The position numbers and the translations under genes were made by a program. DNA of 53,320 nucleotides, counting the filler, from Circinaria calcarea (lineage: Eukaryota): NCBI GenBank assembly GCA_051942165.1. It is 4 parts of 4 records of this genome, joined end to end, with 100 filler letters (N's around TTAATTAATTAA, not from the genome) between each part and the next. Parts side by side here need not be neighbours in the genome. Positions count along the whole stretch, not along the records: positions 13,389 to 26,667 come from JAVECS010000517.1; 3 more parts are not named here. One strand, written 5' to 3'. Shown here piece after piece: positions 9,051 through 34,353 of the stretch; positions within the stretch are counted from its first letter, which is position 1; every line of letters begins with the position of its first letter. Under the pieces are notes generated by a model. The model had not been told where the DNA came from. It saw only the letters and a program-made list of their open reading frames with translations, and made no database searches.

Positions 9051-9068
9051 CTCTCTCTCTCTCTCTCT
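9051..9068. repeat. (CT)9 microsatellite upstream of the cell-wall protein gene
   Basis: Direct sequence ctctctctctctctctct. Confidence 0.85.
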
Positions 9069-9145
9069 TAATCAACCACTCACCAATCCCTCGATCCTCT
9101 ATACGTATTCTACCCGTTAATTCAATACCCATCAATCCATTCAAG

Positions 9146-9854: not shown

Positions 9855-10916
9855 GCTTGCTTAGAGGATGATATCAGAGGATGGTAATGGGCGGTAGTGG
9901 TTCATTCTTGTTTGGCATTGATTCAGCATGTAGGGTGCGAGCCGATGATTTACTCTTGGGTCTAATACTGCATCAGTTGTGTTGGCATGTTGGATGATAG
10001 GTCCCATCATCCTTGGGTTGAGTGGATAAGATGAGAGGGGATTTTGTGGGATGAAGTTGGTTGGCAAAACATGTTTGCAATGTACAAAACCGATGAGACT
10101 TGTACGATCAGATAGAAACCAATGCATGAAATCAATTGACTCGCGTCTCAGGATCGCGCTGCTGCGCCTCCTCCACCACCCCCTTGAAGATTATGATATA
10201 AGGACCAGGTTTAGCGCAGGCGCTGAGGTACTGCTGCATCCGCCACTTCTACGCCCAGCATCCAAACGCCCCACGCCCATTTCCCAAACCCATTCTACTC
10301 CCTTATCTTACATTCATTTTACACCTCCATCGTTGTGATTCCGTTACAGGAGCCGTCACTGCTTTAATTGAAACCGCTGAACCTCCTCCCTTTCTGTTTC
10401 ATTTTCTTTTCCGGTTTCTTGTCGTTCACCCCGTTACTGTGCAAACTATGCGATGCCATTCCATTTGTGAGTCTCAGCATCGATTGTGGAGACTCGTTCC
10501 TCTGGATTCTGGAAATCTTAATAATTCTAATATCCAATTGCGGATGGCTTGTGACCCATAATCTAGAGCACGAAGACGTAAGCGCGGGTTATAAGGTAGA
10601 ATCCCTGTCTTTCACATATTTTTGCCTCCATGCTCGACTTTGGATGGACTGAAGTATCCACCTGCAGAGAGTGGCACTGACACGCCATGTATGCGGTGCC
10701 GTGCTTGAAACTCAGGCAGTAGTCGGAAGGAAATGCTCAATAGCTGGCTTCAGCTAATGCGGATGTCATTTAAAAGGAGGTGGCTCGTTGCGGCAGCGCT
10801 GTCCGCTGCGGAGCATCCCTTTTGCACAATGGAGTTACAGTATAGCTATCAAGCCTGCTGCTCATTCAGCACTTCTCTGTTTGTAAAACAATCCGGTATT
10901 TTCAAGAAACACAGAG

Positions 10917-12696
10917 ATGGATCGGATTACTCAACAAAATGAGCAAACATCAATACAATCTTCATTTACCACAGCTCTTAGGCATCCACATACGAGGTCG
11001 AGTACAGATGCTCCAGAGGTCTTGCCTATGGAACACTCCAAGGACAGGCGTCAAGGCCCACTTCTACTGCCCGGAAAGGAAGACAAGGAGGCTGTTAATA
11101 ACGTTGACGAGGCAGATATGCAAGTTGTCCCTCTAGAATGTCAAGGTCGTCAAGAGCCAGGTTTACAAGTACTCATGGGAGGAGAGGAGAAAGAATTAGT
11201 CCTTAACCAAGATTTAATCACTGGGCTGCAAGTAGAGGGCGACGGCAGGGCAGCTAATCAAGCAAAGACAAGAAGCCGAAGTCCACGACACATTTTTGTA
11301 TTCTTCATCATTGTCGTCGCTATCGTCATTATTGTTGTAGTTCCAACTACAATTTTCAAGCGTTCAAGAGGCGCCGGCGGTCCTACGAGGTAAGAGTCTC
11401 AATACATTGTAAGTCATCTGCGAATCATCTCCAATGGTTAATCCATGTTAGTCCACCAACAAATGCGCCTGCTACAATGGCACCTTCTACTGGTCTTCCC
11501 AGCGCAACTGGTATCTTCAACCCGGCAATCTCGACTACTCCTCAGGCAAGGGCTTTACCCGGGATCGGTATGGCTTTTTTATATCCGGAGAATATTTATG
11601 ATGCCGCTTGGCTTTTATATCAAGATATTACAGGAGCTCTTAGGTGTGTTCCATATACTATCTCAGATATCTGGAGAAGTAGCCAGGTTCTCCGGATAAA
11701 CGACGTTTTCATTGGCTCGTCGTTGACTGCTATAAGTTATAAATCTCCAGCAGGCAGCGAAATGGTTGTAAGGAGCTCTCACCTTCACTCCTCGAGCTAT
11801 ACTGACGACTGAGTTCCAGACGCATCATCTTTTCTATATTGACACATTTGGGAAAATACAAGACATGACTTTGACAATATCATCCGACATGAGCGGTCCA
11901 GCCGACTCATGGATGCCCGGCAACTTGGGAAGCTACAAGTTCAAGGCTCCTCTAGTTGCGGGTGTTGGTATGTCAGTGATTGCAAACAATGGGGAATATT
12001 TCGTCGAGTCTTCCTATGTACCAAACCTTACCATTGCTGGTGTAGTAAGCCTGTTCGTGGGTGGTATAGACGGTCTTGTTCACGAATACAGATACTTGGC
12101 CCAGAACAATACATGGACTGCAAGCTTTACATTCAATGATACAAACGGATATAGTGGTATAAGCGCTTACGCAGTAGGGACGGGCGCAACACTGTTGATG
12201 CACAACAACAGTGGAGTATCAGCTAAATGGGATACGTGTTCTGGACCTTTTTCTAGCCCATGTCCTTCCCCTAATGGGGAGACACCAAAGCGATGGTATG
12301 CTGGTAGGTAAAAAATACCCCTTGAAGTTACCAAGACCTGAATATCTAACTCACACTCTGGCTAAAGTAATACCGGCTTTTGTAACAGCAGTTGCAAATA
12401 GCTCTCTGTCACCATCGATTGGCGAATTCTTCTACTATCAGGATTCTAATCTAAGCATCAACTTCTTTCATCGAAATGATCTTGACGTGTATGTGTCGAG
12501 CAAAATAACGGATAGTCCGCAGGGTATGCGTGGTACTGCATTAACCGGAGGGATGTTTAACAGGCATGGTGAACCACCAGCAATCGGGCAGGTCTTTTTT
12601 CAGTCGGCAAATGGTAGCATCGTGGTGTATGCCCCTGAGTTATCTACATTCGGGATATCTGCATGGGTGAATTACGGCGAAGTACCACTTTGCTAG
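10917..12696 (+). CDS. Single-pass membrane protein with fucose-lectin-like beta-propeller ectodomain
   Basis: Exons 10917-11389, 11452-11767, 11820-12303, 12368-12696 splice in frame. TM helix IFVFFIIVVAIVIIVVVPTTIF after a basic stretch. Blade-like repeats LLYQDITGAL, HLFYIDTFGKIQDM, LFVGGIDGLVHEYRY, FYYQDSNLSI, VFFQSANGSIVVY. Confidence 0.7.
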
Positions 12697-13288
12697 CTAG
12701 CTGGACTACGTGTCGCTGAGCCAGATTAGTCTCCACAAAAGCTGCAGTTACGATCAGTGCAAGAATTATTTACAGCATGACCATTCGATTTTACTTGTTT
12801 ATTATTCCTGAATATATCGTCCCCCTTCTCTCCGACTCACGCAACATCCATTTAATACCTTCGGCCCGCCCCACCAAAAACCCCCTTCGCATCCAAGCCA
12901 TCCAATAATAACAGCCTGTGCAGTGAGAACTGCCAAACTGTATAATCGACGCAGTGCGAGCAATCCGCACTGCACTATACTACCAGTGTAAGGTATTACA
13001 CTACCAATGTAATCCAAAAGCCCCCGCACTTGCAACCGCCTGCACCATAATATCGGAGGCCTCACTCCCAATATTCCTTTCCCCCGCCATACACCGCCCT
13101 TATGGACGGACCCACCTTAGTCTCTTACCAAAATAAACCAGCCGTACCTACGCCCAGTCAGTCCATCTTACCGTACTGATTTACTAACGGAGCGGGGGCT
13201 CTGGTTTACCGGCATTTTAATCTCCCCCGTCTGCGTCCGTTGTTCCGTGGAGGTTTTCTGCGGGACGGGGAAAGGGTGGGGATAAGGA

Positions 13289-13388: not shown

Positions 13389-16300
13389 CCCCTCCCCAAT
13401 CCTCGCCCCATCTCTCTCCAAAACATGCAGCAGCGGAAACAGCCCATGCGTCTCCTGCCTCTCGTCAATGCTCGCCCTCAAGCGGCCCATCCATGCCTCA
13501 TAGCCCAGTGGCTCCAGCATATAGCCAAACTGCTCCCGTAGCAGGTCCCAGAGCTCCGCGAAGAAGAGCCCATCGAGAACACGCTCGACATGGCCCGAAG
13601 CACCCTGACCAAAGACGCCCATCATGACACCTTGCGCTACCCGTGACACGTCGGTGACGAACAGCCAGTGCGCGGATTCGTCGACGTTGTAGGCACCGAT
13701 CTCGACGCAGGCCGCAACGAGGCGCCAGAGGAAATCACGCGTGTTGGCAATGCCAGAAGACGGGGCCCCGATAATGTAACCGGGCTTCATGGTACAGAGG
13801 CGGGTGTGCTGGAAGGAGGGATGCGAGACACAGGTGTGCACGAGGTGCTCGGAGGCGGCTTTGCTGAGGGCGTAGCCGTCGGTGGGGACGGGGTCGCGGG
13901 TGAGAAGGGGAAGGGTGTGGTTGGGTTTCTGGCCGCCGGAGATGTAGACGAAGGTGGATATGGTGGGAGCGAGCGCGGTAATTTTCAACAGCTCGAGGGT
14001 GGGAGAGACGTTTGGTGGCTTGAGGGTCTCGTAGTCGGAGCTGTAGTGGACTCGGGCGCCGTTGTGAATGACGGCGTGGATGCAATGGTCTTTTTGAGTA
14101 CTTGTGCCACGCAGAAGTTGCAGCTGTTGGCTGTCGAGTCCGAGGTCCGGTGCTGTAAGATCGCCCTGCCAAAGCGTGATCCGGGAGCGGAAGGCATCTT
14201 GCCACCAGCCCATTTTGGCAGCGGCATCTATAATGCGCTGGAGGCTTGTGAATTCTGTGAGACATCGCACCAGAGCGAATACACGGATATTTGATCTTGC
14301 CATGAGTTGTTGTAGAATTGCAGAGCCCAGGTACCCGGACGCGCCTGTGAGAAATATATTTTGTATCTGGACATTTTTTCTCGAGTAGCGATTCGGGCTT
14401 TGAGCTCCGATGTCTCTGAACAACTTCTCACCTAACTGATCAACCTCGCGACACATGTCAATAGCTGTAGATGTTTTAGAGGCCGTTGAGGATTGATTAG
14501 GGTAGTCGATCAAGAACGCCAAGTCTCTAATGGTAACCTTGGAACTCAAGAGTATTTCCATTGGAATCTTCACTTGGTGCGTTTTCTGCAGATACATTGA
14601 TAGTGAGATAATTTGGATGGAATCAATTCCGGCTCGCTGGAGTCTGAAATCGTGGTTTTCAAGCATTTCTCGTTTCACTCTATCATTGCATGCCACAAGC
14701 TCTGCCACCTTGAGACTGAGTACATTTGCCGTAGTATCCTTTGCATCAAGCCTGGAAGCTTTGAGATCCAGCATCGTAGAATAGGCTACTTTGGAAGGTC
14801 TCGACTCCATGTTCATAAGCCAGTCATCCACTAACCGCCTATCTAACTTTAGAGACGGTACGAACGGCATCCTCGTAACTATAAGGCACGCTGTAGGGAT
14901 CATGTAGCCTGGTAAGTTACTCGAAAGGTGTTTTCTGAGGCTCTCTATGGACAGAGACTGCTCAGGAGCAAGAGAGATGGGCTCATCTAGAATCCGCGAA
15001 GTGTTCGACTCTGTGCTCCGCATCTGCACTACAGCAACTAGCTCCCCAGCAAAGCATCCTCGCTTGGGTCGAGCTACAACCGATATCGCTACCCCTGGGA
15101 TCCGCGTAACATGGTGCTCAACTTCACCCGGTTCGATACGCTGGCCACGAAGCTTGATCTGGCTATCTTTTCTACCCACAAAATCGTGAGAGCCATCAAA
15201 AGAGCTGGTATTTATTCTGAGGAGGTCTCCCGTGAGATAGAATCGTTGGCACTTGAGCCCCAAGTCATGTGCCCACGACGGATTTTCGAAAAAGGATAAT
15301 CGGGTCTTGACTTCATCGTTGAGGTAGCCGCGTGCCAGACTTGGTCCTGCCACTACCAGCTCGCCCACAGCACCGATTGGAACAAGACGGTGGGGATCGT
15401 CTGGGTCCACAAGCCAGCATGAAGAGTTTCGTAGCGTATGTCCGACCGTTTCTGGGAGAGTTTGGCTGGGATGCATATACATAATCAAGCATATACCGAC
15501 CTCCGCAGGCCCATAGATTTGAATGAGCGAGACTTTCCCTGCCCATCTTTCAATGTGGGCTTGGGGTAGAGCCTCGCCACCAATGGCAAGTGTGCGGAGC
15601 GTTGGGACCTTGGATGGCTCAATTAGCCCTGCGAAAGACGGCGTTAAAATGGCATAGTTAGCTTTCATGCGATTAATAACATCGACTATGTTGCTTCGAC
15701 GGTCTTCTTCCGATGGTATGCATATAGCTCCGCCAAAGATTAATGTTGTGAAAATATCTATAATTGCCACATCAAAAGTATGAGCTGCGAACTGCAGAAC
15801 CCGGGCTGCATGGTAGCCCATTGCCTCTCCGTGGGCTATAGCATGAGTACAGATGGCGCCATGCTCGTGGATCATTCCCTTTGGTTTTCCAGTTGAGCCA
15901 GAAGTAAACAAGACAAATATCGGATCAGTGGAACCGGTATTGACAGAAGGAAAATCATGTATATTATTATACTGATGTTGAGAGACCGTTGTAGCAGAGA
16001 TTGTTACGACACGCTCTACCAACCCCACGAAAGTTGATGAAAATCGATCTGAGGTAACAATCACGCTTGCGTGGATACTGTCCAAGGTCTCTTTGAGCCG
16101 CGCCCCTGGATGCGTTGGATCAAGCGGAACGAATGCGCCTCCTGCTTTCAAGATTGCAAGCGTGGCAACCACAGTCCAGAGGCTTTTCTCGTAAGCGAAA
16201 GGCACGTACATTCCTGGACTCACACCTGCTTGAACCAATAGCTTTGCAGCAGTTGATGAAAAGCTGTCTAGCTGAGCGTAGGTCAGAGAGCCATCCCAGG

Positions 16301-17313
16301 CGCAAACAGCTTCAGAGCCTGGTATCGCTCTGGCAGTAGCTTCGACAAGATGGTGCATACAGCTCATCTGAGCGTACGGAATCTTGGGATTCCATGATAC
16401 CATTTTCTGCTTATCTTCCTCGCTGACAAAGTCCAGTTCTCTGACTTTACATTCCTTTTTCAAAACCAGCTTGTTTGTGATCTTTCGAAACGTATTCGCT
16501 ACAGCATGAGCATATAGTTTGGAGATTGTCGTGCACTGATAGCTAATTGACATACTGACAGGCGGCTGAGCTGCATCGAAATTCAGTATTAGGTCGAACT
16601 GCAAACGTAAAAGTTAGCCTAAGAAAGATAGGTAACACGAGACTAATGAAATTTTGACTCGGCATGATGTCAACAGTCAATGTGCTATTATATACACTTC
16701 TAAATGCAACGACCGGTTTTAGCGGTCTAAATTAAGATATAGAAAGATGAAATTAACGTACTAAATTACATTTTTCTAGCAAGAGAAGATTTATAAAATA
16801 GTATTAATTTACCGGTTGAGAACCCGTAAGCCGTGCAAGATATGCATTTCGCATTCCATCTGTTAGCGATACAGGGGCTGAAAATCTTACTGCCGTGTTG
16901 ACATGACTCGTCTTCAAGACTTGCCTAGTAGATTTCCAATGAGCAGCCGCATGAACATCTTTTACTTGGCAGTCATCAGCAAATTGAAACTGCAACACTG
17001 AAGCTTCAGTGTTTGCGCTAGGAGACATTTCGTTGGGGTTTCTTTGATAGCAATAAGAAGCCTGATCATTGAGAAGAACTGCAAAGGCAACAAAGTCGTT
17101 TCGCAAGTAAGCCCGCAACAAGAGTGCCCAGGCAGCCAGTACCAAGTCTTTCGAAAACTCAAAGCTGCCTCCCAAGGCCGGCAAGATAGTATCATCATGA
17201 AATACAGTGACAGAATCGCAGAGGTGACTCTCGATGTCTCTTTGTGGAGAGGTGGGGAAACGGCAGTGCTGGGGAAGGAGTGCTTCTGACGACTCTTGCG
17301 GGGTTGGACACAT
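13389..17313 (-). CDS. NRPS-like enzyme: degenerate C-like N-terminus, adenylation, thiolation and terminal reductase domains (A-T-R); C-terminus cut by contig end
   Basis: Exon 17313-16813, phase-0 intron 16812-16599, exon 16598-13389. A-domain motifs LTYAQLD, LKAGGAFVPLDP, FTSGSTGKPKG, FDVA, YGPAE, YLTGD, GRKDSQIKLRGQRIEPGEVE; T-domain GIDSI; R-domain FLTGASGYLG, HNGARVH, GYALSK. Confidence 0.95.
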
Positions 17314-18115
17314 GACCAGAGTTTGAAAGAGAGCGGGTAAACAGTGAACCCAAATGTGCTGTCACAAAGGTAAGTGGATGCCAGTTTCAGTATAGAGAAA
17401 TCTCAAAGTCGCCCAACTTGCTTAACAGCTGTAGACTTCTTAATTGCAAAGCTCGTCCGGAGCGGTTATGGGACAAGTATGCATGGCTGCGAGAGCGGAT
17501 AAGGTGTGATAGCCGGGCCTGAGATCTTGTGAAAGGCACGTATCGCCAAGGTCTTTGAATCTTGTCCACGTCCCGATCGCCAATGGCAATCGGGCCTACT
17601 CTAGTGCTGTGTTGCGTGGATTTGCATAATAGGTAGACTTGAGAGGACTTCTGCATGGGTGAGAAACGACGGGGTGACTTGGCGCACAGGTCCCCGCATA
17701 TGCGAACTTGAAGGTTTGAAGCTATACGATCACAGCATGTCGCGGCACCTTATCGCAGCTGGCGATGCATGCCGATCTGGCGAAGGCACCTTAGATCGGT
17801 ACCGAGTAGTTTTGGTGCAACTGCGGACTGAGACCGGAGACCCTGCATCGCAAGTCAATATTACCGTACAGCACTGTGGTAATATATAACAGAGTTGGTT
17901 TTCCCCCATAGGAATGAAGCGGGTACAATGGCGTTCCGAGAGCTCCTCGCAAAGGAAAAAAAAAAGCATACTAAAAGTGCCAACATGAGCGAATGTGTGT
18001 TTCATGGTCAAAAGGATAGGGAAAGAGAAACTCGGATATTTACATCGTCTGCCAAAAGTCTCATTGCCTCTCGTTGTCTCATTCCCTGGCGGCGACCAAG
18101 GTGTAATAGACTACC

Positions 18116-19231
18116 ATGGCTCGTTCAACGCTTGATCTGTCACTCTTTACCCATGGCAATGAATCAGAACGCCATCAGCTTGCATCAAGCTTACTCGGGA
18201 GTCTGTCTCAACGTGGTTTTGCGATTCTCGTAAACCATGGCATCTCAGACTCGACAGTAACGGAGTTGTTTGAATGGGTAAGCGTGAGACAACCTTCATT
18301 GTGGTATCTTAGCTAGCTGACTGGGATTCTGGCCGTGAATCGCAGAACAAGTCATTCTTCCGACTGCAGGCGATGGACAAGGCTTCAATCGCGCACCAGC
18401 CTGGACCTGATCCTCAAAGGGGTTGGAGCGGAATTGGAGCAGAGAACAGCTCTACGCTATACCGAACGGGGCTGCTAAAGTCTCGAGTGACGGAGGACCT
18501 AAAAGATGCAAGAGTAAGTAAGCGGCGACGTCACTGCACAGCTAGATTTATTGACGAATCAGGAACATTTTGATACTGGATCGAAATCGGACCTCCAATA
18601 TCCCAACAAGTGGCCTGACAAGAGTGTCCTGCCAGGCTTTCGTACTCAAATGGAGGCTGCATTCGAGACGTTGGAAGACATCAGTGCACATGTCATGGAA
18701 GCCCTCGAGGTGGCCTTCAAGTTGCCTTGCGGCGCTTTCCTCGACAGAATGACTCACCAAGGCAACGCGAGTGAAATGCGGCTGAACCATTACCCAGCAA
18801 TCGACATCAAAGAGATTAGGGCCGGAGGCGTGAGTCGAATCTGGCCTCATTTCGATCTAGGGGTGATAACTCTTCTGTTCCAAGATCGGGTCGGTGGACT
18901 TGAGTTTGAGAACCGAGAGGAACGTGGAACATTCGAGCGCATTGAGTGCGGTGCCCCGTCGGAAATGGTTGTCAATGTAAGCGAGACGCTGCAACGGTGG
19001 ACGAACGACATCCTAACTGCTGGTCTCCACCGGGTCGATATTCCCAGGCATATGGAAGACGAGGCGAGCGACATGCTCCCCGAGAGATATTCGATTGCGT
19101 ATTTCTGCAAGGCCGATCGGGATGCTTCTGTCGGACCTCTAAAGCAATTCGTGCACGAAAGCACTGGTCCCGTGTACCAGGACATGCTGGCCATAGAATA
19201 CCATCGGCAGAGATTGCAATCAGCATACTAG
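18116..19231 (+). CDS. 2-oxoglutarate/Fe(II) dioxygenase (DIOX_N + 2OG-FeII_Oxy)
   Basis: Exons 18116-18277, 18346-18513, 18563-19231. N-terminal LDLSLF..GFAILVNHGI; MRLNHYP; iron ligands H-F-D (WPHFDLGVITLLFQD) and H (GLHRV); 2OG-binding RYS. Confidence 0.93.
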
Positions 19232-19530
19232 CCAGGATGTCAGCACCTGTTAGAGTAGCTGAGCTTCATCGATGCTTCAAAGCCACCTTAATCGTAGCTG
19301 GTAAGCCTTTCACTTGACAGGAAAAGTTCATCAGTCTTTTGCGTGTATTTGTCAGATAAGATAAGAATGATATTGCTTTTCCCTGTTGGCAGCTCCATGC
19401 TAGAAAGTACTCCGATGATGCGTAGATTAGAGACTGCGCGATTGATATTGTACAATCGATAACGCAGGAGGCCAAGAAGGCATGCATGTCCCTCGAGACT
19501 TTGTAGAGTATCCGCTTGCAAGAGTCCAAC

Positions 19531-20682
19531 ATGTCAAGTTCGAATACCTTAGGCGTTGAACCCCAAAAAATCTCCATCACCATCCTCGGTTGCGGTGAGC
19601 CGTCGTTTTCTACCACCACTTCAACCTCATAAGCAAGAAGCATCTCTCTTTCCGCAAAAACGAAGTTAACCTCTGACAGCCCCCAAGGGAAGCTGGGCAC
19701 ATCCCTCCTGCAAGGTCTTCTCTTTCACCGGCGCCTCGAGCCTTCAGTCTCCAACCTTTCGGGCCCTCCATCTCCTTCCCATTCTTTTCTCGAAATCTCC
19801 CACATCTGCGTCACCGTTCGCCATCCTGCCAGCGTGACCCGCATCCAAGAGACTTTGCGCTCCATCTCCGCCCCTCACCGTCCTACTCCATCCGTCTCCA
19901 TCCTTCTGCAAGATGGAAACGGCGTCGCAGCCCAGGAAAGCGACGTCGTGATCCTAGGCTGCAAACCATCGGCCTTCAGCGCCATTCTCCAGGACTCGGC
20001 CGTCCGACAGGGGCTGCTTGGGGTCTCCAAAAGAAGTGGGAAGAGAAAGGTGCTAGTTAGTATCCTAGGCGGTGTCAGCATCGCCCAGCTAGAAAGTTGC
20101 CTCTATGCCTCCCCCAATCCCACACCTCAGGACGCAACGGAGGAAACCCCTTCTGACGAACAAGACCCAAGATCTCGCTGCATCATCATCCGCGCGATCC
20201 CCAATATAGCAGCTCGTATTCAGGAATCAGTCACTATTCTCTCTTCCCCGCCAGCTTCCTCCACTCTCTCTTCCACCATGGACGATTCAGCCATGGTCGT
20301 CAACGCCCTCTTCTCCCACCTCGGCCTCGTCAAACATCTTCCCGAATCTCAGTTCGCTCGTGCCTCCGCGCTCGCCGCCTCATCCCTTGCCTTCTATGCT
20401 AGAGTGATCGCCGCTGCTGCCGATGGCGCGATGGCAGACGGAGAAGGACTTGCCTGGGATGATGCCCTATGGATTGCAGCTTACGCAGCACGAGGCACGA
20501 GTGCGCTTGTCCTCGCGGGAGAGGAACCAGAAGCCGTTGTGCGGGCGGTAGCGACGAAAGGGGGAAGCACTATGGCCGGGTTGGAGGTGATGGCGCAGAG
20601 GGGAGTAGAGGAGGCAGTGAGGGAGGCTATAAAGGAGTGTGGGAGAGTTACGGAGGGACTGAATAACGCTCGACCTGGATAA
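19531..20682 (+). CDS. Pyrroline-5-carboxylate reductase-like protein
   Basis: Exons 19531-19594 and 19688-20682 join to give the Rossmann motif ITILGCGKLG. Also SDVVILGCKP, LVSILGGVS, IIRAIPN and C-terminal VATKGGSTMAGLEVM (family consensus V.SPGGTT..GL). Confidence 0.88.
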
Positions 20683-20765
20683 AGAAGAGAAAGAAATGCT
20701 ATATCAGAGATATCTTTCAAAATTGTGAACGTAGTCAATTTCCGCCTCTGGACCATTCCCTTCTC

Positions 20766-22245
20766 TCACTTACCCGCGTCCAAAATAACTTTCACAACTT
20801 CCCGCCTTTCAAAAGCGGCATATCCCTCCACCGCATCACTGAGGGGCATCACATGTTCCGTCATGAAGCCCAGGAGATGCTGCTTCTGCATAAAAAGACG
20901 CAGCGCTTCGGCGAAGATGGACCGGACAGGACAGCGGCCCATCTGGAGACGAAGGTTCTTGGCGTATGCTAAGTAAAACCGATCAGCCCCCTCCAGTCCC
21001 AACCTCACAAGCAGCAGGCTTCCGTTTGCATTTGCATAGTCGGGGAAGCTGAGAAAAAGGAGAAACAAAGATCAAGCCTTTGGAAACGGGCCTACCTTCG
21101 GCCAACGTCCACGGAACGCCTTCGCTGTGCACGCCCGCACTGACCAGAACGCCTCCGGGTCTCAAAAGATCAAAGCCGGTCCGTAGCGCCTCCTTTCGGC
21201 CCACCAGCTCCATGACCACGTCTGCGCCTCTGCCTTGCGTAGCCTGTCGGATCTGTTGGGCCACATTGTCTAAGCCGGCGCTGATGTCCAGCGGGATGGC
21301 GCCGAGGGCTTGAGCTTGGGAAAGCCGAGAGAGCACGCTGTCGATGGCGAAGAAATGCTGAGGGGGATATGTAGAGGCGGTGGTTATGGCGCAGAGGCCC
21401 ACGGGGCCGCAGCCGATGACTACGGCTGTAGTGCTGGTGGGAGGGAGAGAAGGTGGAAGGAGGGAGAAGGCCGAAGTGGCGGCGAAGTACTAGGTAGAAA
21501 GTGAGATGATAGTCAGTGATGCCAGACGGCTAAATGCAGAAGCGGAGAGAGCCGTAGAGAAATGAAAGAACAGGGAAACGTGAAATTGGAAAAGTAAGAA
21601 CGAGAAATGGAACGGAGAGAGCTTCTTACTCCTGTTGGGAAAACATCAGCCATGAGGACAAGGCTTTTGGCGTCGAGGCTCTCAGGGGCTTTGAAGACGG
21701 TCGTATCCGCGTGAGGGACCCGTACATATTCTGCCTGGGCCCCGGGCAGCTGCTGCGTGCCAAAAACGAGACATTCGACGCATCGGCTCGACAGGTTCGT
21801 TTGGCAGTAAAAGCAGACGCCGCTGTGAGAAATCTTTCAATGGGATTGCGGCCTAAACGCCCCTTTCGAGCAAAGTGTGAAAAGGAAAACCCAGAAGCCA
21901 TACCAGCTGACTGTAAAGGGGCTCACCACCAGATCTCCCACTTCTAGACTTTCAACCTCGTTACCTTTCTCCACCACCGCGCCGTAGAATTCATGGCCCA
22001 TGGTAGTACCTGCTGGGCAGGCTTCGTATCCGCGAAGCAGATGGAGATCACTATCGAGCTTCTTAGATGACAAGGGTCCGCTACTCATCTGACGCGGCGA
22101 TGGTGAAGGGGCGAGTTTTCACCAACCTGCCACACACTGCCGTGTACCGCACTCGCACTACTATGTCTTTTGCATGTTGGATGCGTGGAATCGGGCGCTT
22201 CTCCACCGCTACCTTTCCTGGGCCGTGGAATGTTATGGCGTTCAT
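20766..22245 (-). CDS. Zn-dependent medium-chain alcohol/aldehyde dehydrogenase (multi-exon)
   Basis: ATG 22245. Spliced motifs TAVCGSDLH, MGHEFYG, structural Zn site C-GVCFYC..SSRC, MADVFPTG, VIGCGPVG, GRGADVVMELVG, QMGRCPVRS; stop at 20766 after KVILDAGK. Confidence 0.92.
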
Positions 22246-22479
22246 CTTGTTTTCGAGCTTTGAAAACGTTGGGCGAGGTATCTCTCCAGGGATAATGGAA
22301 TGATCAGAGATCTTGCTACTTTATAGGCTTTCTTTTTAGTGTACTGTTTCATCATATGGTATTTACTACGGAGTACCAGGTTCACTATCGGTCGCATATT
22401 TTATAATGCAAGCTAGTGGCTCAGTCGACGTGCTGGGTGAGACAGCATAGAGGTTAAGCCCAAATACCGACGAGAAACC

Positions 22480-24097
22480 TCATGCGTTCTCTCCGTTTCT
22501 GTTACTACCCGATATGCGAGGCTTATGATTCCTGCGAAGTCCATGTCCTCCTGTAATTAACACAGTTAAGGCCAACAGAATGGAGCTCAAGACGCCCATG
22601 ACAAGCGACATTACCGACCAACCAAACCGACCTCGAATGAACCCAGCATAGAGCGGTCCCACCATCGAGCCCCCAGCAAATGCACAACTGAGAAGACCAT
22701 ACGCTTGAGCGTTAGCCCCGTAAGGACCGAAGATCCCGGGACTTGCCTGTTCGATTTCTTGCACCGCAGAAGAGGTTTCCTTTACAAAGGCCGGGTTAAG
22801 TAGAGTGACCGAGATCCCAATCGAAAACATCATCAGCCCGAGCTTTACAAAAGGCGAGGTCACGCCGTGATGGATCAGCCGTAAGAGAATCAGGGTCGAT
22901 GTCAATAGCAAGAGGCCGCCTGCTGCGGGCAACTTTGTGCCAAATCGATCTGTCAGCGCTCCAGAGATGGGCGAGAGCAGCGCAGGCAGTGCTAGAATCA
23001 GAAACAAGCAGGCAGACTTTGTGGCATTGAAGCCGAAACTGTCGTGGACATAAACAGCCAGGACGCCGTCGAAGCCTGTCGTGAAGCTATTTACCATGAA
23101 TAGACATACAACGGCAACCGAGAATCGTGGTGACGAAAGCAGGATTAGATTGGAAGAGCCGCCCGACCTTGGATGTGCTTTTGGCAAAAGAGATTCCGTC
23201 TCCGTGTTTCTTTGCGATCCGTGGAGATCTGCACTCGGAAACCGGTTACTTTTGCTTGTACTTTGATCTGCTGGAGCGAGATCTCTGCCATCGGTACCGT
23301 AAGTATTGCCAGTCACGACTACCGAAGGCGGCGTCAAGTTGGGAGATTCCACAGGACGTGGCTCGAAAGATATACGCTTTTCAACAATAACTATAAAACG
23401 CAAGGCGATGTCGAGGCCAATAAAAGCAAAGGCGGGAAGGAAGACCGCAAAATAGCCTCCATGGTCGTAGATGAAACCCCCGGCCACCGGGCCTAAGAGA
23501 ATGCCTATAGTAATGCTCATAGTAGTATATCCCGAGGCCTTGCCGATCCCATCGTTCCCAACGATATCAAGGAGAAGTGCATTGCCGATGGTAAACACGA
23601 CGGCGCTTGACAGCCCTTGTAAGACACGTGCGAGAAGTAGAACAGGTATTGTAGTTCCGAGGGCAAAGCAAAGGGTGGACGTTCCCAATATCACTAAGCC
23701 GAGAACGAAAGGCGTCTGTCGGCTAGGGCTTTTGTCTCCTATCCAACCAAAAAACACTAAATATTCCCTCGGGTTAGCTTCAATGGTCCACTGTATGGCC
23801 ATCCGCGCACTCAATGGTGAAAATTCGAAAGCTGAAAGACGTCTCTCCGAGCAGGAAAGCACGGCACATGGACTGAAAGTGCAACGTACGCGAACCAAGC
23901 ATCTGAGCTCCACCAAACGAGGCCAGCAAAATCGAGTTCCATCTCTGCACGTCCTCCTGCGCAAGCCCAACCCGCTCCGAGAGTGCATAGGGGAGCACAG
24001 GAAGGATGAGGTTGGCCAAGCCCATGTCAGTGAGCATCGCAATGCACACCACGAAGGTAATGAAAGCTTTGGAGGACCGAAACTTGCGGGCGACCAT
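22480..24097 (-). CDS. MFS transporter (vesicular amine transporter/DHA1-like)
   Basis: Exon from ATG 24097 (an extra upstream exon near 24270 is possible), intron 23889-23757, exon 23756-22480. About 12 hydrophobic segments; FRSSKAFITFVV, ILPVLPYAL, GWIGDK, ARVLQGLS, GALTDRFG. Confidence 0.9.
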
Positions 24098-24616
24098 TAT
24101 ATGATTTGCTGAGAAATGCACGGAATTGTATCAGGTGGTGTGCCCAGTCTCGGAGTCGGGGACGAGCTTCGTTGGACGACAGCGTAGATATAACCACCAC
24201 TCGCACGTCTCGCAATCTGGCCTGCGTCATCGCTTTCTCCAAATGCACGGTGAGGTTCGTTTAGGCTCATGCCGGGCAAGACCGAAGATCGAATCTGTAA
24301 GTTTTTGTTTGGGCTGGGACGAATCAGCTTCTCTGTATCTAGATCGGGAGATGGGAGTTAGAACACATGGGGTAAAGGCCCCTCACCTGCAGTCCGGATA
24401 ATCGGAATACCAAGAAGCTGGATACAACTAGAGTCAAGCTAAGTAGAAGGCTTTTCGTTAGTACTTTATTCGCAGCTGATTACGACTTTTGGTTTCTGGG
24501 GGTTTCAGTGCGGCTCGCCTCGTATACTCAGATTTGGTCAATTTAATAACTATGAATTGCTCGCCTATTGCTTAATTTAGAGTTGTTAAATACGGCGGTC
24601 CATTGATTAACATGCA

Positions 24617-25992
24617 CTATCCAATTCTAGTTAGATCACTATCCCTCATAAGCGCCTCTGCCTTGACCTGATATTCGCTGAAAAGCTCGATTGCCTGGGA
24701 AGGTCTATCAGCAAGCCATGCTTTATACAAGGAACGAATGTTCACATACTTGTCTGGTCTTAACCTGCCCTTTCCCGCCGTCTCTGCTGGCAAAGGCCTC
24801 CCGGTACCTTTCTTCGTCGTTCACGAAGCTTGTACGCTCGATTCCTTGCTCTGTGGATTTTGTTATGTCTTTAAATAATGAAAGTTCCGCTACCTTTGCT
24901 TCCGGCTCATCCCTTTCCAACATAGCCTGCAGATATCCGGGAGCAATTGTGAAGGCAGCCACACCGGCTAGCTGCATGATCTCTTCCACAGAAATCACAC
25001 TGCAAGCCTTCACCCGGGTCGAGTACGAGTACTTCTCAAAGTACTGTTGCGCCTCGACACACAAGCTCAAGATTGGGTCCGTATCATGGTAACTAGATAG
25101 CTAAGCTTCCCAGATGCTAAGATTAGAAGTGAGCTGGTAACTCCACTTACGTTTCGTCAAATTGAACCCTAAGCTCGTGCACGAACGGGGAGACATAGAT
25201 ACAGCCGGCTTCGGCTGCGAGTATCGCTTGCTCGATAGTAAATGCCGTAGTTGCCAAAGTCTTGACACCCAGAGATTTCAATTTGCGGCAGGCCTGAAGA
25301 CCCTCCCAGGTAGAGGGAACCTTGATACAAAGTCTAGATAGGTCGAAGCTGGGTTCCAACCGATGGCAAAGGCCATAGAGACCTGTAACACGAGGTTAAT
25401 GACATTTCACTGATTGAGTTGCTGGGCAGTTTGAAGGAGCGCACGCTGGCCATTTTCGATGATTTTCGTGGTTGAATAGGAGAAGGTCGGGTTAGCCATG
25501 ACATGTATTATGCCGGTGATCAAAGGTGCAATGGCCAAAGACAGGCTGACCATCTACGACAACCAGTCAGCAAGAATGGGCACTATAACCTGTCAAACTT
25601 GTAAAGGGGGTACGCACGGATATCTCTACTGCCAGCTCCTCAAAAGTCACATTGGGGTACTCGGACTGCATCTGCCTTCCAAGGGCAGCGGACTTTTTGA
25701 GCAAAGCCGCGCGCTCGGGTTTGAGTAGCTCGAAGTAGGTATCACCCTAGGCATCGTCAGTAACTGAGTCAGTGCTCAAAGCTAGGTAAGATACCTGATT
25801 AGAAGTGCAATCCACAAATGGCCCCAGGTCTGTGGCAACTGAAGATACCACCCCATCAGTACTCCCCACGGCATTTGCCAGAGAAGAAAGGTTCTTACCT
25901 TGAGTACTCAGGCTGTCACAATCAACCTGAGTCTTAGAGCGGAGGTACTCTAAGAGGTTGACGGAAGGAGTCGTATCTGATAATGAGCCCAT
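24617..25992 (-). CDS. Divergent transaldolase-family protein (7 exons)
   Basis: Exons 25992-25899, 25838-25795, 25746-25618, 25553-25445, 25382-25151, 25092-24750, 24694-24617 splice in frame. Motifs VDCDS, DCTSNQ, Schiff-base Lys in LCIKVPSTWEGLQAC, QAILAAEAGCIYVSPFV, LAGVAAFTIAP. Confidence 0.9.
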
Positions 25993-26667
25993 GTTGACCA
26001 AGGTCTTTTGCAACTATGGAGGTCTTCTCCGAACTTGAAAATGTACAATGGAGAATCGAAGGCAGAGAGCTGGATCTCTGTCCCGATACGAAAACGGCTT
26101 GTCGGCCCCAGTCTCCGCCGCCTTTAAAGGTCTCCAGGACGCATTGGCTACATCGGTTGACGACTGCAGTCAAAAGTGTGAGAGACACCCAGCTTCATGA
26201 CCCTGAATTTGTAACCAAGTGGTAAAACATGTAAGAGAAAGCTGAGCGCTATACAGTAGCAAACAGCCATGTAAAATAACGGTAAGACCATGATCGATAC
26301 AGGCCAATCGTAAGTTAAAGTAACTTGCTCGGCTACTCTAACATCGAAGCTAATCTCACATTGACCAGCGTGTGACAGAAAGTGCACAAGCTGCTTGCAC
26401 ATTGGAGCCGAGCAGATGCCGATGCCAGGTAACCCCGATAGTGTACTGCAGTCGTATGGTCGGATGGGTATTGATCGTTAGCGTGGTATTAACAGATTAA
26501 TGCCTAATGCAGCTAGAGCCTCACTGTCTACTAACACCCATCCGACCAAAGTATTTCGCAACAGCATATGTAGCCAAATCCCAACGCTTACCTTTCCAGG
26601 TACCTACAGAGTACTGCCTTGCAGCTAGCTACCTTAGGATGCATGCACTACATCGTAGGTATTTAGC

Positions 26668-26767: not shown

Positions 26768-26778
26768 TGGATTACAGG

Positions 26779-28677
26779 TTGCTTGCTGTCAATGTCGTGT
26801 CCTTGATATTTGCAATTGTCGCTAACATCGCCCTACTCTTCAACATGGGGCGTCGATTATCTTTTTCCAGGGCGCAGCCCATCACCATTCTGGGATGGTA
26901 TATTGCAAGTTTCCTACTGGTCGCCCTTGTTGCTGTGACTGCACGCGGTTTAAAACTACCCCCACCGGACAATCGAGCACTCAACCAAGCCTTCTACTAT
27001 GCTATCATGTCCGCTGCTTTGTACTTCATTGTCGCCACACTAATGTGCTTCACGGTGTACGGAGCTGCTCGAGGCGCATATCCCAAAGAATTCGAGCTTA
27101 CCACGAGCCAGAGGACTCTGATGATACAGACAATCTTTTTTTTCATTTATCTACTAGGTGGTTCTGCCGTGTTCGCACGGATTGAGTCATGGAAATTCCT
27201 TGACGCTGTATATTGGTGCGATTTTACTCTACTAACGGTTGGGATTGGAGACTATGCGCCTATGACGCATCTAGGAAGGAGTCTTTTATTTCCTTATGCA
27301 ATTCTTGGCATAGTCAACGTTGGATTGGTTGTCGGTTCCATTAGGGCAATGGTATTGGAACGAGGGAAGAAAAAACTCGGAGCTCGTATGGTTGAGAAAA
27401 CAAGGGAGAAGGTGGTACAGAAAATAGATAGAAAAGGTGGGAAGGTCAAATTGAATCCGCTGTCCAAGGGGCATACGCTTGCCCCTGATGACAAGTCCGA
27501 ACAGAAAAGACGCGAAGATGAGTTTGAACTCATGCGACAGATTCAGGACCACGCTGCTACTCGACGAAAATGGACGTCCCTTTCCGTGTCAATTGGCGCA
27601 TGGTTTTTCCTCTGGTTCATTGGCGCGGTCGTCTTCTACAGGGCGGAACGTAATCAATCTTGGACCTATTTTGGTTCGCTCTATTTCTCGTACACATCGC
27701 TGTTGACCATTGGATACGGTGATTTCAGACTCTATAGCAATTCAGGAAAACCATTTTTCGTTTTCTGGTCACTGCTAGCTGTACCTACCTTGACAATTTT
27801 GGTGAGCAACATGGGAGATACGGTTGTTAAGAGTATCAAAGATTTCTCAAACTGGTTAGGAGAGTTTACGGTATTACCAGGGGAAGTTGGTGCCAGAGAG
27901 CGCTTCAAGAAGGGTGCGAGTAACCTTATAAAGCGTAAGGATTCATCCGAGGATATAAAGACGGATGAACCTCCGGGACTACTAGGGGAAAGTCAACATG
28001 ACATAGAGCAACAACGCCGAGGCATTGGAGGACCAGGAATGGATTGTATGGCTAAAGATTTCGAGGACAGTGAGCTAATTGAAGAGAACAAAGCTGCTGA
28101 TCGAGGAGAGGATATTGACAAAGACATACATCACTATCACTACCTTCTAGTAAAAGAAATTCGGAATGTAATGAGAGACCTCAATCAATCTCCACCACGG
28201 CAGTATTCATACCACGAGTGGGCTTGGTTTCTCAGACTTATGGGGGAAGATGAGAATTCCTCCAAGTCTCATCGCAAAGCACCTGGCAAATTAAAGCCGG
28301 ACGGTAGTGAAGACATCGAAGTCGAGGGTGCAGGAATCGATGACCAGGACGAGGACGAGGACCGTCACCAATGGAGCTGGTTGGGGACGAAAAGTCCGCT
28401 TATGGGCGAAACCGAAGAGGCAGAGTGGATTTTGGAAAAGCTGTCACTGACTTTGGAAAAGGATCTGAAAAAGGAACGTGATAAACAGAGGCGGGCCACC
28501 CACGGTCATAATAACGAAACCGAGATCAAAACTCCCCGACAGACGTCAACCAAAGAGCCATCAACCAAAGAGCCGTCAACCGAAGAGCCGTCAACCGAAG
28601 AGCCGTCATCGTCTCGTTGCAGTAGCAAGACGCTGCAAGGAGATCGGTCTCATGGGCGGTCAAGGATTAGCCGCTAG
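26779..28677 (+). CDS. TOK1: TOK1-like two-pore outward-rectifier potassium channel, 5' exons missing (contig start)
   Basis: Two pore loops TLLTVGIGD and SLLTIGYGD with flanking TM helices, LTTSQRTLMIQT motif; the frame begins right after an acceptor-like TACAG at the contig edge. Confidence 0.9.
   Translation: MLAVNVVSLIFAIVANIALLFNMGRRLSFSRAQPITILGWYIASFLLVALVAVTARGLKLPPPDNRALNQAFYYAIMSAALYFIVATLMCFTVYGAARGAYPKEFELTTSQRTLMIQTIFFFIYLLGGSAVFARIESWKFLDAVYWCDFTLLTVGIGDYAPMTHLGRSLLFPYAILGIVNVGLVVGSIRAMVLERGKKKLGARMVEKTREKVVQKIDRKGGKVKLNPLSKGHTLAPDDKSEQKRREDEFELMRQIQDHAATRRKWTSLSVSIGAWFFLWFIGAVVFYRAERNQSWTYFGSLYFSYTSLLTIGYGDFRLYSNSGKPFFVFWSLLAVPTLTILVSNMGDTVVKSIKDFSNWLGEFTVLPGEVGARERFKKGASNLIKRKDSSEDIKTDEPPGLLGESQHDIEQQRRGIGGPGMDCMAKDFEDSELIEENKAADRGEDIDKDIHHYHYLLVKEIRNVMRDLNQSPPRQYSYHEWAWFLRLMGEDENSSKSHRKAPGKLKPDGSEDIEVEGAGIDDQDEDEDRHQWSWLGTKSPLMGETEEAEWILEKLSLTLEKDLKKERDKQRRATHGHNNETEIKTPRQTSTKEPSTKEPSTEEPSTEEPSSSRCSSKTLQGDRSHGRSRISR
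28545..28608 (+). repeat. 15-bp coding tandem repeat x4 (STKEP/STEEP) in the K+ channel tail
   Basis: gtcaaccaaagagcc / atcaaccaaagagcc / gtcaaccgaagagcc / gtcaaccgaagagcc. Confidence 0.9.
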
Positions 28678-29299
28678 TAGACGACCTGGTTACTATATCT
28701 CGTACGATCTTCGTCTTTCTGTCTTGCATCGTCTGCAAATACCCCAGGTAATGCGTTTCACTGGCATTGTAATTCTCGTGCTCCGCAGTCGGATTCAGAG
28801 CATGACGTGGATTCGGACTCGGAGTTTCGTCTGGATCATTTTTTCAGAATTCCCAATCTTATTACTCCCTCAAAGTAGTGAGTCTGTACCAGCAAGGATA
28901 TCTGCCGTTAGTTTCCTTATCGACAAAGCATACAAACACTGATAGCCATCTTAAACCGCTGATCTAAATCATCAAGATCTGTACCTGCTAGCAAACGCTG
29001 CCTCAATTCACTCTCAACGCATCCGCCACTCTATCACGCCATCCCGAGACAGTCATATCCAACAGCACAAATGCATTCACTCTAATGCCTCGTGATCTCC
29101 AATCCAGCAGAATGACCCTCCTTCACTACGAATGTGCCGCGGTTCTCCTACATCTATTCTGTCTCTCACTACGATGGTCCTCTCAAATCTGTGTACAATT
29201 GATATCCTGTACTGCTGCCTTAGGTGATCAAGCATACTTAGCAGATACCTTCTTACAAATTGGGCTTGCCCTTGCCTGAGTAAGCCCTATCTGGGAACT

Positions 29300-30067
29300 A
29301 TGATTCTCCCTCGGGACAGCTCGTCGACGACGAATCTGGTTCCCGTTATCGCCGCCGTTGTTGGTGGTATCGTTGCTGTTGTAATTATCGCTACGGTAGT
29401 CTACTTCATCAGAAAGGACCGTCGCAGCACCAAAGACCGCGAAGCCCGTAGGGAACTCCGTCGGCAGCAGCGACTTGAAGAGCAGTACCAACAGCGTGGT
29501 TTAGGCGCTACGACATATCGAATTGATGAGGACACCGAGCTCACCCTAACTTCCCCTCTTTCCAAGGAGATCTCCCCGCCTCTGTTCTCTCCTCCACCAC
29601 CGATTTTCAATCTCCACTACTCCAGAAACCCCTACATTCCGCCCACGAGTCCCGTCGACGAAGCGACAATCCGTCACCTCGCCTCCGTCTCCGCCAACAC
29701 TGCTGACCCCGTTGCCGTTCCCGCTCTTTACCGTCAAGCGCAACTGATGCACGATGTCAATACCGGCACCGATAATACTAGCGCCACCGACGCGAGTGCC
29801 GCGGGACCGGTGGCGAATTCGCCCTTCCTGCAGTGGAAAGCGAGGAAGTATGAGCAGTTAATCGCAGATGGCAAGACTCCGGAGGAGGCGATGTTGGGTA
29901 GTGATGCTAGTGCAAGCGAAACTGTGGATGTTATTGATGAGAGGGTTGGTGCTTACGCTTATGGGGCTTATGGACGGAGAGGTGCGGGTGCGGGAGAGGG
30001 GCAAAGGGTGGTTCCGGCGCCGTTGAGGGTGACGAGGAAGGGGAGTGTGCCGGACAGATGGCGCTGA
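29300..30067 (+). CDS. Hypothetical single-pass membrane protein with Pro-rich cytoplasmic tail
   Basis: 255-aa ORF; TM LVPVIAAVVGGIVAVVIIATVVYFI followed by basic RKDRR. Confidence 0.7.
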   Translation: MILPRDSSSTTNLVPVIAAVVGGIVAVVIIATVVYFIRKDRRSTKDREARRELRRQQRLEEQYQQRGLGATTYRIDEDTELTLTSPLSKEISPPLFSPPPPIFNLHYSRNPYIPPTSPVDEATIRHLASVSANTADPVAVPALYRQAQLMHDVNTGTDNTSATDASAAGPVANSPFLQWKARKYEQLIADGKTPEEAMLGSDASASETVDVIDERVGAYAYGAYGRRGAGAGEGQRVVPAPLRVTRKGSVPDRWR

Positions 30068-34171: not shown

Positions 34172-34199
34172 TATGTATGTATGTATGTATGTATGTATG
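34172..34199. repeat. (TATG)7 microsatellite
   Basis: Direct sequence. Confidence 0.9.
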
Positions 34200-34353
34200 A
34201 TGCTACGTCAGGCAAGACTCAAGTTTCGACCTTAGATTCAAGTCTGTCATCTACTATACATCAGATAGCGCGAGGTTTGAAACGCGAAATTCAGGATCAT
34301 GAATTGTTGACGTAAAGCAAGGTGTCTGGATGGTAAACAGCTACTAAAATCTG

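Follow-up and report, generated by a model that had tools for sequence, protein, structure and literature searches.

A contig of the lichen-forming fungus Circinaria calcarea (Lecanoromycetes) carries what we tentatively read as a conserved, uncharacterized fungal secondary-metabolite cluster, the core of which would join a non-ribosomal peptide synthetase (NRPS)-like reductase to a re-purposed class I aldolase of the transaldolase fold. The contig (positions 13389-26667; 13,279 bp) is the second of four sequence pieces, joined by N44-TTAATTAATTAA-N44 artificial spacers, that make up the 53,320-base stretch of DNA analysed here (the window), and it is one whole contig, cut at both ends, of a metagenome-assembled genome (MAG). 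Its genes encode a single-module reductase with adenylation, thiolation (carrier) and reductase domains (A-T-R), a 2-oxoglutarate-dependent (2OG) dioxygenase related to UcsF, a divergent relative of pyrroline-5-carboxylate (P5C) reductases (P5CR-like), a zinc-type medium-chain dehydrogenase (Zn-ADH), a major facilitator superfamily (MFS) transporter and a transaldolase-like (TAL-like) protein. Judged from gene order across fungi, a real and co-functioning cluster with an A-T-R/TAL-like partnership is highly probable.

Gene content of the contig

Pfam was run on 36 stop-to-stop open reading frame (ORF) translations of the contig, and gene limits were set by reading frames and splice sites. Ten translations had matches, every one inside one of six genes: the A-T-R gene (17313 down to 13389, minus strand, its 3' end lost at the contig end), the 2OG gene (18116-19231, plus strand, three exons), the P5CR-like gene (19531-20682, plus, two exons), the Zn-ADH gene (22245 down to ~20765, minus, several exons), the MFS gene (24097 down to 22480, minus, at least two exons) and the TAL-like gene (25992 down to 24617, minus, seven exons, 342 amino acids (aa)). 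Successive genes are separated by ~800, 300, 83, 235 and 520 nt, transcription of the A-T-R and 2OG genes diverges, and 13389-26667 has no housekeeping gene among the six; the same compact set had been described in an initial annotation of this DNA, and both Pfam and the frames bear it out.

Public gene models exist on the contig for the A-T-R (Q9187_003247, partial), the P5CR-like enzyme (Q9187_003249) and the TAL-like protein (Q9187_003252). Two public models are faulty, P0122 (TAL-like) and P0243 (P5CR-like), and their mis-splicing is such that automated annotation would make both enzymes seem defective. The contig DNA codes for intact genes, with unbroken frames and GT-AG introns, and we rejected the idea that they are pseudogenes in favour of annotation error.

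Conservation of the gene partnership

Gene order was read from the DNA itself for two metagenome loci (L001 and L002, below) and from locus tags, accessions and contig sizes for all others. Of the 120 A-T-R relatives listed, 26 are rows with a named organism, and counts refer to these; the TAL-like search, confined to its best 120 matches, was not exhaustive. Among the matches listed, a TAL-like protein lies on the same contig as the A-T-R in 11 of the 26 named rows. In 10 of those 11 the two are 1-5 gene positions apart by locus tag or accession: Circinaria (A-T-R/TAL-like 003247/003252), Xylographa trunciseda (007447/007450), Xylographa opegraphella (000719/000723), Stereocaulon virgatum (003303/003300), Letrouitia subvulpina (005053/005055), Fulgogasparrea decipioides (005727/005730), Hymenoscyphus fraxineus (2206/2207), Xylaria bambusicola (011774/011775), Calycina marina (KAG9241340/41) and Phlyctema vagabunda (KAL3417924/25). 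The eleventh, Lepraria neglecta, merely has both on one 6.3-Mb contig, and Hymenoscyphus albidus (8200/8201) adds one further adjacent pair. The partnership spans Lecanoromycetes, Leotiomycetes and Xylaria.

Metagenome contigs scanned with a single protein yielded no relative; an alignment-based scan did yield loci, L001-L004 among them. L001 and L002 encode full-length A-T-R orthologues (58% and 57% identity) within a set of TAL-like, MFS, 2OG and A-T-R genes that has the order and orientation seen in the window; their TAL-like genes share its active-site signature, and the MFS homologue, at 48% identity, sits at the matching position in both. Neither locus has a P5CR-like or Zn-ADH gene, even at E<=1, and no Zn-ADH homologue was found in 76 metagenome loci, so the Zn-ADH is seen in Circinaria only. 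Downstream of the A-T-R in L001 (13500-21200) are genes for a family-2 glycosyltransferase, a methyltransferase, a PhyH-type dioxygenase and a glyoxalase-fold protein.

P5CR-like genes recur at other loci. In Calycina marina (KAG9241339) and Phlyctema vagabunda (KAL3417923) one stands immediately beside the TAL-like and A-T-R genes, as three consecutive accessions in each species, and one P5CR-like relative lies on a contig of 10,611 bp, which is also the size of the contig bearing the A-T-R relative P0006. On this synteny, the predicted core of the cluster is the A-T-R plus the TAL-like gene, with the 2OG and MFS genes as common companions and the P5CR-like gene recurrent but dispensable. The claim that the genes form a cluster therefore holds for the A-T-R/TAL-like synteny, which recurs, but not for a fixed six-gene unit, since L001 and L002 do without the P5CR-like and Zn-ADH genes.

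A transaldolase fold with a rebuilt active site

Pfam places TAL_FSA on two exons of the TAL-like gene (24726-25395, minus), which has introns at 25898-25839, 25794-25747, 25617-25554, 25444-25383, 25150-25093 and 24749-24695. The resulting seven-exon GT-AG model is identical at 283 of 342 residues to the 342-aa X. trunciseda orthologue (P0124). The public model P0122 (268 aa) lacks the exons for the active-site segments HVMANP and CIKVPSTWEG, including the Schiff-base lysine. The X. trunciseda orthologue matches E. coli TalB at E ~1e-23 and a yeast transaldolase paralogue at 6e-21, far too weakly for a housekeeping fungal transaldolase.

We mapped residues to TalB positions by HMMER alignment to 1onr and 1i2o, the E96A chain of 1i2o marking the Glu column, and counted them in a 121-sequence alignment of TAL-like relatives. 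In TalB we take Glu96 and Asn154 to be catalytic, Arg181 and Arg228 to bind phosphate and Lys132 to form the Schiff base. At these and neighbouring positions the window protein has Asn35, His94, Met96, Asn98, Lys132, Leu154, Thr156, Ser176, Phe178, His180, Glu181, Ser226 and Ile228. Across the alignment Lys132 is kept in 120 of 121 sequences, Thr156 in all 121 and Asn35 in 107, and the N-terminal Asp pair is invariant wherever that region is present. Glu96 occurs in none of the 121 (Met in 100, Gln in 19), position 154 is Leu in every one, position 181 is Glu in 106 and retains Arg in a single sequence, and position 228 is mostly aliphatic or Thr.

Retention of Lys132, Thr156 and Asn35 points to retained Schiff-base chemistry, loss of Arg181 and Arg228 points to lost sugar-phosphate binding, and the reversed charge at position 181 would be suited to an amino-aldehyde acceptor that is cationic. 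We infer that the TAL-like protein is a re-purposed class I aldolase for unphosphorylated, probably cationic, substrates. Its initial assignment as a transaldolase is thus right as to the TAL_FSA fold and the Schiff-base lysine, but the catalytic Glu96 and Asn154 and the phosphate-binding arginines are gone. We rejected a housekeeping transaldolase, and likewise a self-resistance copy, since the whole family has lost its catalytic Glu and its phosphate site; P0124 scores 109.3 bits against the talAB model (cut-off 396.2). Against the fructose-6-phosphate aldolase (FSA) model it scores 63 (cut-off 246).

FSA is a relative of transaldolase, and we take its Gln59, Tyr131 and Ala129 to correspond to TalB positions 96, 178 and 176, where the window protein has Met, Phe and Ser. 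The 19 sequences with Gln96, and no others, also have Tyr178 and Ala176, which completes the FSA constellation. In a FastTree phylogeny of 116 rows, with P0122 swapped for the corrected model and five rows shorter than 280 aa left out, these 19 form a separate clade with 100% support. In the Met/Phe clade the A-T-R-linked TAL-like proteins take basal positions, and 55 Eurotiales and Ophiocordyceps proteins with no known A-T-R link form a nested group.

Position 181 is Glu or Gln in the Gln96/Tyr178/Ala176 clade as well (in P0199-P0241), which includes proteins of Aspergillus tubingensis, A. heteromorphus, Phialocephala subalpina and Trapelia coarctata and may consist of fungal FSA-like aldolases for unphosphorylated substrates. 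Pairs of Met96-type paralogues, adjacent or near one another, occur in several Eurotiales and one lichen fungus, as in Candelina mexicana (P0130/P0168; M1836_004122/004123), Penicillium fimorum (P0173/P0187; N7463_000301/000303) and Talaromyces proteolyticus (P0160/P0186); such pairs, inside the 55-row clade, may mark a different, unexplored cluster type. The TAL-like alignment searched against bacterial and archaeal genome contigs returned only six bacterial transaldolases, at 31-39% identity, and nothing of fungal origin.

A proposed supply of methylproline

The 2OG enzyme (Pfam DIOX_N and 2OG-FeII_Oxy, 18110-19228, plus) has the HxD...H iron triad (as HFD...H) and an RYS motif. Its main exon matches UcsF (PDB 9ktp_A) at E 1.7e-65 (223.9 bits; query 12-237, chain 105-333), and the second-best PDB match, thymine dioxygenase, reaches 1.5e-24. 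About 115 of ~232 alignment columns are identical (~50%), the alignment runs up to both C-termini and the iron ligands are conserved. PMC8233208 describes UcsF as converting L-isoleucine to (4S,5S)-4-methyl-P5C, a conversion also performed by DetxE of Beauveria felina, only 42% identical to UcsF, with ordinary P5C reductases finishing the step to (3S)-methyl-L-proline. The window enzyme is closer to UcsF (~50% over 226 residues) than is this proven homologue.

The simplest reading of the UcsF-like dioxygenase and its P5CR-like neighbour is a methylproline-supply module, and because housekeeping P5C reductases suffice for the second step, L001 and L002 can do without a clustered one. By analogy with UcsF, the pair most likely builds 3-methylproline from isoleucine and supplies it to the A-T-R; for the broader statement that the dioxygenase, together with some P5C reductase, makes an alkyl-proline feeding the A-T-R, we put the chances at about even. 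The proline-type substrate proposed at the outset gains support from this neighbourhood.

The P5CR-like enzyme matches Pfam P5CR_dimer (19633-20679, plus; 4.9e-18) and falls short of the cut-offs for F420_oxidored (19.7 against 21.6) and NCBIfam proC (142.6 bits against 196.75), and its top P5C reductase match in the PDB reaches only 2.3e-9. The family is small and divergent, with 20 representatives at E<=1e-30 among 1.84 billion proteins. Its Rossmann motif, GCGKLG (GCGKLG or GCGKMG in relatives), arises across the intron (...ISITILGCG/KLGTSLL...) and is seen in the corrected model only; P0243 starts from a wrong upstream first exon and hence lacks it. The family also keeps a V-A-T-x-G-G-S/A-T-x-x-G loop (VATKGGST in the window). 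We take the V-A-T-x-G-G loop to bind the substrate carboxylate in PYCR1, and its conservation fits a P5C-like substrate better than a bicyclic iminium, which has no carboxylate.

The A-T-R reductase

The A-T-R (13389-16613, minus, for the Pfam domains) has AMP-binding (1.4e-59), PP-binding (2.7e-6) and NAD_binding_4 (5.1e-35) domains, the carrier motif GIDS, the reductase motifs TGASGYLG and YALSK (YxxxK) and the A10 lysine in PSLKLDRR. It scores 346.3 bits against the NCBIfam AA-adenyl-dom model (cut-off 317.4) and, shortened as it is at the contig end, 208.6 against Thioester-redct (cut-off 213.35). The ORF protein is 100% identical to P0002, its start codon is at 17313, an intron lies at roughly 16812-16600 and ~38 C-terminal residues are missing at the contig end. 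Lys2 was rejected as an identity, TIGR03443 scoring 292 bits against a cut-off of 1030.1.

Ahead of the adenylation domain is an N-terminal extension of ~260 aa (16600-17313), which orthologues also keep and the first exon of which is 56% identical to residues 1-167 of P0003. Pfam finds nothing in the window's 167-aa first-exon part of it. The last ~70 residues of the extension match the end of the Condensation domain faintly in two orthologues (E 0.015 and 0.23), and the extension may be a remnant condensation-domain lobe that supports the adenylation domain.

Pocket positions of the adenylation domain were anchored on conserved motifs and given GrsA numbering. The specificity string, DVIIAGIICK, combines Asp235, which pairs with the alpha-amino group of the substrate, with an otherwise wholly hydrophobic pocket; it recurs exactly in 43 of 120 A-T-R relatives and as DV[IMF]IAGII[CV]K in 86 of them. 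Such a pocket appears to suit a hydrophobic amino or imino acid, and hydroxyproline poorly; methylproline and Ile, Leu or Val are inseparable by it.

A proposed route to a pyrrolizidine polyol

Two further enzymes complete the gene set. The Zn-ADH (Pfam ADH_N/ADH_zinc_N, 20986-22118, minus) has CGSDLH and GHEF motifs and a CxxC-type structural zinc motif, its gene converges on the P5CR-like gene across the ~83-nt gap, and its PDB matches are to generic zinc dehydrogenases only (top 4cpd, 1.8e-17). The transporter matches MFS_1 (22483-24096, minus; 5e-35).

The data establish gene content, synteny, family assignments and active-site substitutions; from these parts we propose a pathway in which every substrate, the C3 donor, the ring closure and the product are inferred. 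The UcsF-like dioxygenase would oxidize the delta-methyl group of L-isoleucine, or of a similar aliphatic amino acid, to an aldehyde that cyclizes to 4-methyl-P5C, which the clustered P5CR-like enzyme, or a housekeeping P5C reductase where the clustered gene is absent, would reduce to 3-methyl-L-proline. The A-T-R would activate 3-methylproline, load it onto its carrier domain and release it reductively as the amino aldehyde 3-methylprolinal. To this aldehyde the TAL-like enzyme would add a lysine-bound enamine formed from a C3 ketol without phosphate, for example a dihydroxyacetone unit, the Glu at the former Arg181 phosphate site holding the cationic amine. Ring closure of the amino-ketose at its own nitrogen would then occur spontaneously and form a bicyclic iminium or hemiaminal, reduction of which, in Circinaria possibly by the Zn-ADH, would yield a methyl-substituted trihydroxy-pyrrolizidine for export by the MFS transporter.

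The steps differ in how far we trust them. Aldol addition by the TAL-like protein to the A-T-R aldehyde could go either way, and the whole route to a pyrrolizidine polyol we hold to be possible, with the odds somewhat against it. More speculative still, and on balance doubtful, is the general proposal that the Met96/Glu181 proteins are natural amino-aldehyde aldolases; they would then provide a first natural aldolase-based iminosugar route, from 3-methylprolinal and a free C3 ketol to methyl-branched polyhydroxy-pyrrolizidines (C9H17NO3), in lichen fungi, Helotiales including Hymenoscyphus, and Xylaria.

Several observations weigh against this pathway. On the genomic side, 13 of the 26 named A-T-R rows had no TAL-like protein in the best 120 of the (non-exhaustive) TAL search, and the TAL-like and A-T-R proteins listed for cf. 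Caloplaca sp. 3 and Xanthomendoza sp. 1 come from separate contigs. L003 and L004 hold an A-T-R relative (49% identical) without any partner gene within ~9-10 kb, so the reductase family occurs outside the cluster too. A dedicated last-step reductase is not conserved across clusters, and if the Helotiales clusters of P5CR-like, TAL-like and A-T-R genes were without a 2OG gene, late reduction of a cyclic imine by the P5CR-like enzyme would become likelier. As for the enzymes, the adenylation-domain code is not known to match any bacterial proline code. The TAL-like protein has neither of the two acid/base solutions (Glu96 of transaldolase; Tyr131/Gln59 of FSA), and His94 and His180 are not kept in all A-T-R-linked members (Leu and Asn in Fulgogasparrea); its aldol competence is accordingly only putative.

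The lone A-T-R of L003 and L004 (8916-12248 in L003) is flanked by a HET-domain gene and a VLRF1-type gene.

Alternative explanations

The alternative that survives best, which we nonetheless consider unlikely, gives the TAL-like protein no aldol role on the A-T-R product: it would be a resistance or supply copy, or act in epimerisation, in retro-aldol cleavage or with another donor, and the pathway would end in a simple amino aldehyde or amino alcohol, or in a dimer of the pyrazine or piperazine type. Known A-T-R clusters often do give amino-aldehyde dimers (lna/lnb, herquline, aspergillic acid), and both the want of either known TAL/FSA acid/base arrangement and the 55 nested Eurotiales and Ophiocordyceps proteins with no known A-T-R link are in keeping with such a reading. 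A resistance or supply copy, however, should keep transaldolase function, whereas Glu96 survives in 0 and Arg181 in 1 of the 121 relatives and P0124 reaches 109 of the 396 bits set by talAB; the kept Lys132, Thr156 and Asn35 argue for Schiff-base chemistry, and tight adjacency to the A-T-R over three fungal classes argues for a shared pathway.

An acyclic route is distinctly improbable. Here the A-T-R would reduce Ile, Leu or Val directly, the C3 ketol would be added, and the P5CR-like enzyme or the Zn-ADH would reduce the resulting pyrroline to a 5-alkyl-2-hydroxymethyl-3,4-dihydroxypyrrolidine resembling DMDP (2,5-dihydroxymethyl-3,4-dihydroxypyrrolidine), leaving the dioxygenase as a tailoring hydroxylase. 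The hydrophobic pocket with Asp235 would accept such substrates, P5CR-type enzymes are cyclic-imine reductases, and in two Helotiales the P5CR-like gene adjoins the TAL-like and A-T-R genes. But the divergent 2OG/A-T-R gene pair is kept in the window, L001 and L002, the dioxygenase is ~50% identical to an enzyme whose known product is already a cyclic imino acid, and L001 and L002 have neither a P5CR-like enzyme nor a Zn-ADH to reduce a pyrroline.

To the pathway of the initial annotation we assign a small probability. It had proline hydroxylated by the dioxygenase, reduced to (hydroxy)prolinal, extended by transaldolase from fructose 6-phosphate or sedoheptulose 7-phosphate and closed to a bicyclic iminium, which the P5CR-like enzyme would reduce to a hyacinthacine/australine-type pyrrolizidine. 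The 2OG enzymes GloF and HtyE do hydroxylate proline, this pathway calls on the same genes, and the P5CR-like gene beside the TAL-like and A-T-R genes in Calycina and Phlyctema is where a late-step reductase might be; aldolase chemistry on prolinal also has precedent (PMC4285126). Proline hydroxylation is nevertheless less likely, the closest characterized relative of the dioxygenase (E 1.7e-65) being UcsF, an isoleucine oxidase/cyclase and no proline hydroxylase, and the entirely hydrophobic pocket of the adenylation domain is a poor one for hydroxyproline. With Glu96, Asn154, Arg181 and Arg228 lost, sugar-phosphate donors are doubtful and an unphosphorylated donor is likelier. The UcsF-like neighbour and the kept loop, presumably for a carboxylate that the bicyclic iminium would lack, likewise make the P5CR-like enzyme a less likely reductase of the final iminium. 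What stands of the original interpretation is a real cluster, with some support for a proline-type substrate; the roles of the dioxygenase, the P5CR-like enzyme and the transaldolase most likely differ from those first assigned.

That the six genes are chance neighbours without a functional cluster is very remote and was rejected, for although the P5CR-like and Zn-ADH genes are missing from L001 and L002 and L003 and L004 have a lone A-T-R relative, the A-T-R and TAL-like genes are close neighbours in at least 10 named rows and again in H. albidus, L001 and L002. The four-gene core also keeps its order, and P5CR-like relatives turn up at the same loci.

Other genes of the window

The contigs at 1-13288 and 26768-39998 have no physical linkage to the cluster. 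They carry ordinary genes, for serine hydroxymethyltransferase (2860-4026) on the former and for a two-pore-type ion channel (26770-28677) and a TPR-repeat protein (38968-39996) on the latter, which also has protein kinases with DUF7580 at 34354-36600 and 37447-38319. The fourth contig (40099-53320), likewise unrelated, encodes another DIOX_N/2OG-FeII_Oxy oxygenase (42074-43516, minus), along with a fungal-specific transcription factor (48074-49171, minus) and part of a cytochrome P450 (52513-52995, plus); it may belong to some other metabolite cluster.

Relation to known systems and significance

The single-module A-T-R shares its A, T and R domains, with intact motifs, with Lys2 and MxcG-type terminal modules, to which the window protein adds the ~260-aa extension. 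We take HqlA, LnaA and AsaC to be other single-module A-T-R reductases, and know of no A-T-R cluster with a transaldolase-fold partner. The pairing of a DIOX_N/2OG-FeII_Oxy enzyme with a P5CR-type reductase resembles UcsF/UcsG of UCS1025A and DetxE with housekeeping P5C reductases in destruxin and isaridin biosynthesis. In the UCS1025A and destruxin systems methylproline goes to a polyketide synthase (PKS)-NRPS or a multi-module NRPS, whereas the Circinaria contig has the single-module A-T-R as its only synthetase. The TAL-like protein has in common with TalB and FSA the TAL_FSA fold, Lys132, Thr156, Asn35 and the N-terminal Asp pair; it differs in Met96, Leu154, Glu181 and Ile or another aliphatic residue at position 228, and has no FSA Gln/Tyr/Ala set.

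Swainsonine is built on a SwnK-type NRPS-PKS hybrid that extends pipecolate, whereas here an aldolase would extend the carbon chain. The 36 ORF translations of the contig, which is cut at both ends, gave no PKS-domain match, and the swainsonine system was rejected on that ground. According to the abstract of 10.1101/2024.09.26.615303, the swainsonine (SWN) cluster, also fungal, makes a polyhydroxylated bicyclic alkaloid and encodes 2OG dioxygenases, imine reductases and a transporter. The nearest chemical precedent is chemoenzymatic iminosugar synthesis, which follows the logic proposed here, an amino aldehyde plus a C3 ketol followed by intramolecular reductive amination: in PMC4285126, benzyloxycarbonyl (Cbz)-prolinal and dihydroxyacetone phosphate (DHAP) give hyacinthacine isomers with RhuA or FucA, and FSA, which takes free dihydroxyacetone, gives fagomine with it. 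That work, by contrast, was done in the laboratory on protected aldehydes, with aldolases that are unrelated or engineered.

Our literature search, with subscription journals mostly outside it, found no description of this cluster, of a pathway combining an NRPS-like enzyme with a transaldolase or of a natural aldolase-based iminosugar route, in line with the earlier remark that the gene combination was not recognized as characterized. The parts come from known superfamilies and the 2OG/P5CR pair has a characterized counterpart; it is the pairing of an A-T-R with a re-purposed aldolase that is apparently undescribed.

Iminosugars, which inhibit glycosidases, are important in medicine and ecology, and few natural routes to them are known. 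If the proposal is true, it would add a new biosynthetic route, from an amino-acid reductase and a class I aldolase, and ready-made enzymes for unprotected amino aldehydes, for which biocatalysis now needs engineered FSA or DHAP aldolases. Even with a different product, the Met96/Leu154/Glu181 family of transaldolase-fold proteins is a clear case of new function and apparently unstudied. The cluster is conserved in many lichen-forming fungi, whose linked chemistry is so far almost all polyketide, and it is also carried by plant-associated Helotiales and Xylaria, so its product may matter for symbiosis or plant interaction.

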